Notes: a model not told the origin generated them from the letters alone. DNA of 64,000 nt from Escherichia coli (GCF_003334315.1 NZ_QOWR01000013.1), one strand, 5' to 3'; shown: positions 39,424 to 40,788, counted from the first letter of the stretch. Program-made: numbers and translations.

Positions 39424-40788
39424 TTGATTACACATATTAGCCCGCTTGGCTCCATGGATATGTTGTCGCAGCTGGAAGTGGATATGCTTAAACGCACCGC
39501 CAGCAGCGACCTCTATCAACTGTTTCGCAACTGTTCACTTGCCGTACTGAACTCCGGTAGTTTGACCGATAACAGCAAAGAATTGCTGTCTCGTTTTGAA
39601 AATTTCGATATTAACGTCTTGCGCCGTGAACGCGGCGTAAAGCTGGAACTGATTAATCCCCCGGAAGAGGCTTTTGTCGATGGGCGAATTATTCGCGCTT
39701 TGCAGGCCAACTTGTTCGCGGTCCTGCGTGACATTCTCTTCGTTTACGGGCAAATCCATAACACCGTTCGTTTTCCCAACCTGAATCTCGACAACTCCGT
39801 CCACATCACTAACCTGGTCTTTTCCATCTTGCGTAACGCTCGCGCGCTGCATGTGGGTGAAGCGCCAAATATGGTGGTCTGCTGGGGCGGTCACTCAATT
39901 AACGAAAACGAGTATTTGTATGCCCGTCGCGTCGGAAACCAGCTGGGCCTGCGTGAGCTGAATATCTGCACCGGCTGTGGTCCGGGAGCGATGGAAGCGC
40001 CGATGAAAGGTGCTGCGGTCGGACACGCGCAGCAGCGTTACAAAGACAGTCGTTTTATTGGTATGACAGAGCCGTCGATTATCGCTGCTGAACCGCCTAA
40101 CCCGCTGGTCAACGAATTGATCATCATGCCAGATATCGAAAAACGTCTGGAAGCGTTTGTCCGTATCGCTCACGGTATCATTATCTTCCCTGGCGGTGTG
40201 GGTACGGCAGAAGAGTTGCTCTATTTGCTGGGAATTTTAATGAACCCGGCCAACAAAGATCAGGTTTTACCATTGATCCTCACCGGCCCGAAAGAGAGCG
40301 CCGACTACTTCCGCGTACTGGACGAGTTTGTCGTGCATACGCTGGGTGAAAACGCGCGCCGCCATTACCGCATCATCATTGATGACGCCGCTGAAGTCGC
40401 TCGTCAGATGAAAAAATCGATGCCGCTGGTGAAAGAAAATCGCCGTGATACAGGCGATGCCTACAGCTTTAACTGGTCAATGCGCATTGCGCCAGATTTG
40501 CAAATGCCGTTTGAGCCGTCTCACGAGAATATGGCTAATCTGAAGCTTTACCCGGATCAACCTGTTGAAGTGCTGGCTGCCGACCTACGCCGTGCGTTCT
40601 CCGGTATTGTGGCGGGTAACGTAAAAGAAGTCGGTATTCGCGCCATTGAAGAGTTTGGTCCTTACAAAATCAACGGCGATAAAGAGATTATGCGTCGTAT
40701 GGACGACCTGCTACAGGGTTTTGTTGCCCAGCATCGTATGAAGTTGCCAGGCTCAGCCTACATCCCTTGCTACGAAATCTGCACGTAA
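39424..40788 (+). CDS. ppnN: pyrimidine/purine nucleotide 5-prime-monophosphate nucleosidase (LOG family)
   Basis: 454-aa ORF recognised as PpnN (YgdH); first codon is TTG, preceded by AAGGAG Shine-Dalgarno. Confidence 0.92.

Follow-up and report, generated by a model that had tools for sequence, protein, structure and literature searches.

Non-ATG start codons in the cysH-argA region of the Escherichia coli chromosome and the conserved TTG start of ppnN

The stretch of Escherichia coli DNA analyzed here (GCF_003334315.1, NZ_QOWR01000013.1; 64,000 nt, hereafter the window) covers the chromosomal region from cysH to argA/recD and is collinear over its whole length with K-12 MG1655 at approximately 2.886-2.951 Mb. 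It includes ppnN (ygdH), which encodes the 454-aa nucleotide 5’-monophosphate nucleosidase (39424-40788, plus strand) and opens with the codon TTG (39424-39426). PpnN degrades nucleotides and is activated by the stringent-response alarmones (p)ppGpp. That bacterial genes may start on codons other than ATG is textbook knowledge. The 2.6-kb region around the ppnN start, comprising queF and ppnN, matches 5426/5426 complete E. coli genomes at 95-100% identity. An earlier note on this DNA had listed non-ATG starts on ppnN (TTG), xni (GTG) and argA (GTG), all of which are present in the sequence; a fourth, the GTG of syd, was left out of that list. All four are already known and part of the curated annotation.

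Among the 54 K-12 coding sequence starts that could be mapped in the window (recD gave no hit), 50 are ATG, three are GTG (syd, xni, also named ygdG, and argA) and one is TTG (ppnN). The resulting non-ATG fraction of 4/54 (7%) is below the E. coli rate of 12-17%, the upper value being that of Hecht et al. and the lower, approximately, that of the current K-12 annotation. At these rates about 6.5 to 9.2 non-ATG starts would be expected among 54; the probability of four or more is at least 0.90 and that of four or fewer 0.04-0.21, which shows that the window is not enriched in such starts.

To assign starts, all start-like codons in frame between the preceding stop and codon +45 were scored for pairing of the preceding sequence with the anti-Shine-Dalgarno (duplex ΔG). 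An in-frame ATG, GTG or TTG was found at the 5’ limit of the conserved open reading frame (ORF), with none better upstream before the stop. In ppnN, the in-frame stop ends at 39396, 9 codons 5’ of TTG, and among the candidates only TTG and the adjoining ATT (codon 2, 39427) have a Shine-Dalgarno sequence, while the in-frame scoring detected none for the ATG codons 11 and 13. This sequence, TAAGGAG (39411-39417, plus strand), is separated from TTG by a 6-nt spacer (TTTTTC) and pairs with a duplex ΔG of -8.8 kcal/mol. The earlier description of a strong AAGGAG Shine-Dalgarno was borne out, as it ranks 4th strongest of the 54 in the window and AAGGAG is invariant in 84/84 sequences. The corresponding values are -11.6 kcal/mol for xni, -7.1 for argA and -5.0 for syd. 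The bare motif AAGGAG-N4-8-TTG occurred once in the window versus 2.07 times expected from shuffles; by itself it carries no meaning and counts only as the head of a conserved 454-codon ORF.

The K-12 curated annotation and that of the Prokaryotic Genome Annotation Pipeline (PGAP) for a 99.9%-identical strain concur on the starts of ppnN, xni, argA, syd, ygcR and fucR. Read from TTG, the PpnN N-terminus is M-I-T-H-I-S, i.e. Met-ITHISPLGSMDMLSQLEVDMLK. The crystallized PpnN chains cover residues 2-454 (6gfl, 9hs1 and 9hs2) or 1-454 (9hs3), and the Xni chain in PDB entry 3zd8 (251 aa) matches residues 1-251, beginning at the annotated Met; structures that use the annotated N-termini show folding, not the native start position. 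Taken together, sequence, ORF, annotation and conservation identify TTG 39424 as the true start of ppnN. We are highly confident that the start assignments of all six genes are correct, and ordinary Shine-Dalgarno-led initiation sites on near-cognate UUG and GUG codons are very probably the explanation of the non-ATG starts.

Conservation of the ppnN start codon was assessed in orthologs from one scan of species-representative genomes, which yielded 80 loci from 80 Enterobacteriaceae species with 90-100% protein identity. TTG with AAGGAG 6 nt 5’ of it was found in 80/80 species, and the spacer between them is variable (TTTTTC, TTCAC, CTCAC, TTTAC and others). TTG is also present, with AAGGAG at the 6-nt distance, in Pectobacterium, Erwinia and Edaphovirga (85-87% identity), giving 83/83 Enterobacterales species, and not one of 84 sequences has A or G at the first base of the start codon. 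The 138 four-fold sites in amino-acid-invariant columns of ppnN are saturated: all four bases occur at 102 of them, a transversion is seen at 132, leaving six without any, and only two are invariant. Since a T-to-A or T-to-G change would yield a functional stronger start and is never seen, the family has retained its non-ATG start to a greater extent than neutrality would predict. This points to purifying selection holding the ppnN TTG across Enterobacterales (empirical p about 0.01-0.04).

The same invariance was seen within the species. When 101-nt queries with ATG or GTG in place of TTG were matched against the 5426 E. coli genomes, 100% identity was obtained in none and exactly one mismatch in 5353, so that at least 5353/5426 genomes have neither ATG nor GTG at this position. 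A metagenomic homologue, L144 (66.5% identical; contig GC 41%), starts with ATG-ATT-ACA-CAT (MITHISP...) at the same codon, behind TAAGGAGG and a 6-nt spacer. Codon 1 is thereby fixed as the start, and TTG is shown not to be universal in the PpnN family. L144 was obtained from a metagenome scan for AAGGAG-N6-RTG-ATTACACA, which is not a census: among the 120 matches listed, 119 were matches by chance and L144 was the one real homologue. More distant PpnN homologues (45-55% identity) have longer N-termini that gave no position-by-position alignment, and they were not used for the history of the start codon.

At the ppnN start, the 30S subunit pairs with UAAGGAG, which brings the UUG that follows after 6 nt into the P site; UUG, like GUG, is decoded by the initiator formylmethionine (fMet)-tRNA. 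In the proposed mechanism, the weaker UUG would lower the initiation rate relative to AUG and thereby help to set PpnN dosage, the rest of which would be determined by the strong Shine-Dalgarno sequence and the structured 5’ leader described below. Reporter measurements place initiation from UUG and GUG at 10-100% of that from AUG, with 1-2% for AUU-class codons (Hecht et al.), and another published estimate puts UUG and GUG 8-12-fold below AUG. By analogy with the GTG of lacI, it is plausible that TTG limits PpnN synthesis, as suggested in the earlier note. That TTG has been kept specifically to cap expression is a tentative reading of the conservation data, to which we give somewhat less than an even chance. 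A literature search on the start codon of ppnN, its N-terminus, its toxicity or a start-codon swap found nothing.

Several observations weigh against a limiting role. The strength of the ppnN Shine-Dalgarno (4th of 54) speaks for compensation and not for low output. No nucleotide of codons 2-4 varies, even at the four-fold site of ACA, and five of the six transversion-free four-fold sites fall within the first 37 codons. This implies that the entire ppnN initiation region is constrained, and a nucleotide-level constraint unrelated to initiation rate could hold the T of TTG. Moreover, the syd GTG is just as invariant (80/80), so conservation of the start codon may be general and not specific to ppnN. 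These observations are what would be expected if TTG were the start without limiting expression, the Shine-Dalgarno sequence compensating for it and the codon being fixed by a region-wide nucleotide constraint (low structure, A/U-rich early codons) or by slow turnover of starts. The tendency of weak starts toward stronger Shine-Dalgarno sequences (Belinky et al. 2017, PMC5622118) and the ranks of xni (1st) and ppnN (4th) in the window point in the same direction. However, the homologue L144 combines an ATG start with an equal or stronger Shine-Dalgarno, so a strong Shine-Dalgarno also occurs without TTG; the 6-nt spacer adjoining TTG varies freely, so the constraint is uneven across the region; and a fitness effect of the start codon has been demonstrated for the lacI GTG. 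We regard a TTG without limiting role as a serious possibility, though less likely than not.

Two further points weigh against TTG as the start itself. A direct N-terminal or ribosome-profiling record for it was not found: the TRAINSPOTTER N-terminomics table passes from b2793 to b2796 and has no entry for ppnN or xni, the INRI-seq list of annotated sites was covered up to a point before b2795, and the TetRP supplements include none of the genes considered here. In addition, INRI-seq assigns to ygdH an in-frame "alternative TIS" (translation initiation site) at ATT +12 (codon 5; 39436-39438, plus strand), with a peak of 188 counts per million (CPM) in 4 replicates and a weak Ribo-RET value of 5.28. 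Together with the missing N-terminal peptide and the invariance of the ATT at codon 2, which lies 9 nt from AGGAG, this could mean that PpnN is made from ATT +12, from ATT codon 2 (39427) or from ATG codon 11 or 13, and that TTG is wrong or the start of only one of two proteoforms.

We consider such an alternative PpnN start very unlikely. INRI-seq sites are called from a peak of read 3’-ends 15 +/- 3 nt 3’ of any start-like codon, which places the peak approximately 27 nt after TTG. ATT +12 has no Shine-Dalgarno sequence within 20 nt, its codon is GTT or GTA (Val, a non-start) in 14/81 species, and AUU-class initiation reaches only 1-2% of AUG. Codons 6-10 of ppnN (+16 to +28; 39439-39451, plus strand) can form an AGCC/GGCU hairpin of 4 pairs, in which G-C to G-U is the only variation and codon 9 ends in C or T only, and the 3’ edge of this hairpin coincides with the peak position at about +27. 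We infer that the peak more likely reflects a nuclease-protected, extended footprint of the ribosome on TTG, caused by the hairpin; footprint extension would explain a peak that rests on 3’-end calling. With neither a ribosome-binding signal of its own nor conservation, ATT +12 is probably an artefact and was judged not to be a real start. As for the other candidates, the ATG of L144 lies exactly at codon 1, and the ATG codons 11 and 13 lack a Shine-Dalgarno, codon 13 being TTA or CTG in 3 species.

Among the other non-ATG genes, xni (44171-44926, plus strand) starts with GTG at 44171-44173 according to K-12 and PGAP annotation and its orthologs. Its Shine-Dalgarno sequence TAAGGGGGT (44158-44166, plus strand), 4 nt before GTG, is the strongest of the 54. 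In the orthologs from Pectobacterium, Erwinia and Edaphovirga (3/3), an ATG coincides with the E. coli GTG or is no more than one codon away from it, and the N-termini read MPVHLLIVD, MIHLLIID and MIHLLIVD. The argA coding sequence (62138-63469, plus strand) starts with GTG at 62138-62140, behind the Shine-Dalgarno AGAGGTG (62127-62133, plus strand; 4 nt before GTG), and this assignment is shared by K-12 and PGAP annotation. Homology to a solved N-acetylglutamate synthase begins at residue 9, which excludes the ATG at codon 31 as the argA start. The only in-frame alternatives back to the stop are ATT at codon -10 and TTG at codon -22, both without a Shine-Dalgarno sequence. No publication relevant to E. 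coli was found in a literature search on the GTG start of argA.

It is highly improbable that these GTG codons are a mere choice of annotation and that the real start is TTG 44081 or the TTG at codon 5 in xni, or TTG 62072 in argA. In K-12, the protein record of xni has reached version 4, a longer ORF is available (44081-44926, 281 aa), the argA ORF reaches back to TTG 62072, and neither gene is among the N-terminomics entries listed. However, TTG 44081 falls between the arms of a 10-bp, GC-rich inverted repeat, in its loop, just downstream of the sdaB stop (44069-44093, plus strand, as read from the sequence), TTG codon 5 has no Shine-Dalgarno, and the xni orthologs carry ATG at the GTG position. 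Likewise, TTG 62072 is devoid of a Shine-Dalgarno and lies in an AT-rich upstream region, the promoter/operator region.

In the same three genera (loci L083, L084 and L085), xni lies directly 3’ of ppnN at a distance of 34-78 nt, and E. coli has sdaC and sdaB between the two genes (40788-44171). The gene order suggests that sdaCB was inserted into an older queF-ppnN-xni array or, alternatively, that the other lineages have lost it.

For syd (37851-38396, minus strand; GTG 38396-38394), annotation and conservation are joined by a mapped N-terminus. The GTG and the upstream element AGAGAGAAA are invariant in 80/80 Enterobacteriaceae species, while the Syd protein diverges to 57% identity, with N-termini such as VDDLTAQ, VDIETAN and VDNEVRL; its Shine-Dalgarno sequence is weak (-5.0 kcal/mol). 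The GTG-encoded N-terminal peptide of Syd was mapped by TRAINSPOTTER N-terminomics, with support from Ribo-RET and INRI-seq.

The 5’ leader of ppnN contains a GCTATTGTAATC box (39374-39385, plus strand), at least 90% conserved in a 62-sequence alignment, which likely represents the -10 element of ppnN. A chromatin immunoprecipitation (ChIP) peak of sigma-S RNA polymerase is listed for ygdH and spans the ppnN start by our own, unchecked conversion of coordinates between K-12 genome versions. A scan of 39200-39520 detected no sigma-70-type promoter, and the only terminator-like element in this interval was the leader hairpin in minus-strand orientation, which lacks a proper T tract. An Rfam scan of the whole window at gathering thresholds returned only CsrB, GcvB, sok, tRNA and ES036, with no hit near 39313-39423.

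Directly after the GCTATTGTAATC box, and ending 2 nt before TAAGGAG, a stem-loop is predicted by per-sequence folding (39389-39409, plus strand). When each leader was folded alone, a hairpin ending 0-4 nt 5’ of AAGGAG was obtained for 61/64 distinct orthologous leaders, with stems that differ by lineage (GGGA/UCCC, CAGGA/UCCUG, GCGG/CCGC, GAAGCG-type, GCACC/GGUGC and CACCCG/GGGUG). The mean z-score versus shuffles is only -1.4, and the 3’ arm is deleted in the Escherichia lineage L004. RNAalifold did not recover the hairpin from the 62-sequence MAFFT alignment because the stem registers differ between lineages. The stability of leader plus early coding region was not unusual (z = 0.01 versus shuffles). 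In the minimum free energy (MFE) structure, codons 4-5 pair over a distance with codons 12-13; this pairing was rejected as unsupported, since it would give an A-C mismatch in the 18 species with GAC at codon 12. The stem-loop is probably located at the 5’ terminus of a short ppnN mRNA or close to it, with a possible role in protecting the transcript or in leaving the Shine-Dalgarno accessible.

A more far-reaching interpretation would unite these features. The stem-loop leader, the perfect Shine-Dalgarno, the invariant UUG and codons 2-4 would together form a selected, family-wide expression governor that curbs or conditions PpnN synthesis; a UUG-to-AUG change would be harmful, and UUG would have replaced an ancestral AUG and become fixed at the root of Enterobacterales. 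We consider this unlikely as a whole. That the leader is instead repressed by CsrA, through the conserved GGA motifs in the upstream GGGA (39390-39392) and in the Shine-Dalgarno (39414-39416) and with the weak start as part of the control, is scarcely credible, since Rsm proteins do bind the mRNA of a YgdH-like protein in P. putida but the upstream GGA lies in the hairpin stem and not in a loop, and CsrA control of ppnN was rejected on the published table of crosslinking immunoprecipitation (CLIP-seq) and ribosome-profiling data (Potts 2017 supplement). There, each of the four yes/no columns, taken to be CLIP-seq peak calls, says "No" for ygdH, the value taken to be the change in translation efficiency is 0.014 and unflagged, and RNA and footprints are both up approximately 1.5-fold.

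The earlier note had also drawn attention to GTG codons just upstream of the likely ATG of ygcR and fucR. Both are present in-frame, at 9497 and 52475. In ygcR (initiation region 9489-9503, minus strand), TAGGAGGTG (9503-9495) is followed by a 3-nt spacer and ATG 9491-9489, with a duplex ΔG of -11.5 kcal/mol, and the GTG (9497-9495), two codons 5’ of ATG, is the tail of this Shine-Dalgarno. In fucR (initiation region 52472-52486, plus strand, supported by pairing score and annotation), the Shine-Dalgarno-like GGGGTG (52472-52477) precedes ATG 52484-52486 with a 6-nt spacer, and the GTG (52475-52477), three codons 5’ of ATG, lies inside it. The location of the upstream GTGs within the Shine-Dalgarno sequences indicates that ATG is the start of both genes. 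ATG as well as non-ATG starts have been described for fucR across E. coli genomes (Cherrak et al. 2024, PMC11445065), which may be a difference in gene calling, given that GTG and ATG are 9 nt apart.

The view that start choice is the main coordinate uncertainty therefore holds for the window as a whole but not for the genes it was tied to, each of which has one credible start. A genuine ambiguity, unlike those genes, is ygcS (9469-10875, minus strand), for which the K-12 curated start is ATG 10803 (445 aa) versus ATG 10875 (1410-nt coding sequence) by PGAP in a near-identical strain.

Elsewhere in the window, at 16306-17862 between ygcE and queE, there are approximately 183 bp more than in K-12, in a stretch of about 1.5 kb without an annotated K-12 gene, and the offset to K-12 coordinates shifts here from 1069 to 886. 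The window also differs from K-12 in its initiator tRNA genes: a single initiator tRNA-Met gene is found at 60503-60579, between the mltA start (60294) and the amiC end (60653), versus three tandem copies (metZWV) in K-12 and the 99.9%-identical strain, three being the number in most E. coli. Only 226/5426 complete E. coli genomes had at least 80% coverage of this arrangement, which corresponds to one or two copies; true single-copy genomes are NZ_AP022105.1 and NZ_CP075640.1. A halved number of initiator tRNA genes in the cell could affect initiation, non-AUG codons included.

The significance of these assignments is small, as the starts are already in curated and automated annotation. The checks firmly back the four non-ATG start coordinates and resolve both cases of an upstream GTG as Shine-Dalgarno sequence. 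The invariance of the ppnN TTG amid saturated silent sites makes it a reasonable candidate for a start-codon swap of the kind made in lacI. Because PpnN degrades nucleotides and is activated by alarmones, its dosage could be relevant to growth and to antibiotic tolerance.

Compared with known systems, the genes of the window do not differ from annotated K-12/RefSeq genes with GUG or UUG starts: the codons, the Shine-Dalgarno geometry and decoding by fMet-tRNA are identical. A close parallel to ppnN (83/83) and syd (80/80), whose non-ATG starts are conserved across a bacterial family, is provided by selected non-ATG starts that tune dosage, namely the GTG of lacI and the GTG of cra and mlc across Enterobacteriaceae (Cherrak et al. 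2024, PMC11445065). By analogy, conservation of the ppnN TTG and the syd GTG is consistent with selection on a lower initiation rate. However, lacI encodes a regulator and ppnN an enzyme, and for lacI the ATG swap was made and lowered gut fitness. Compensation of weak starts by the Shine-Dalgarno sequence (Belinky, Rogozin and Koonin 2017, PMC5622118) fits the GTG of xni (1st of 54) and the TTG of ppnN (4th), but is poorly matched by the syd GTG (weak), the argA GTG (middling) and the ATG-start PpnN homologue (strong). Finally, the AUU starts of infC and pcnB, which are discriminated by initiation factor 3 (IF3), resemble the ppnN start in being conserved non-AUG codons. They initiate at approximately 1-2% of AUG and serve as the substrate of IF3 autoregulation, whereas the UUG of ppnN belongs to the canonical class (10-100%).

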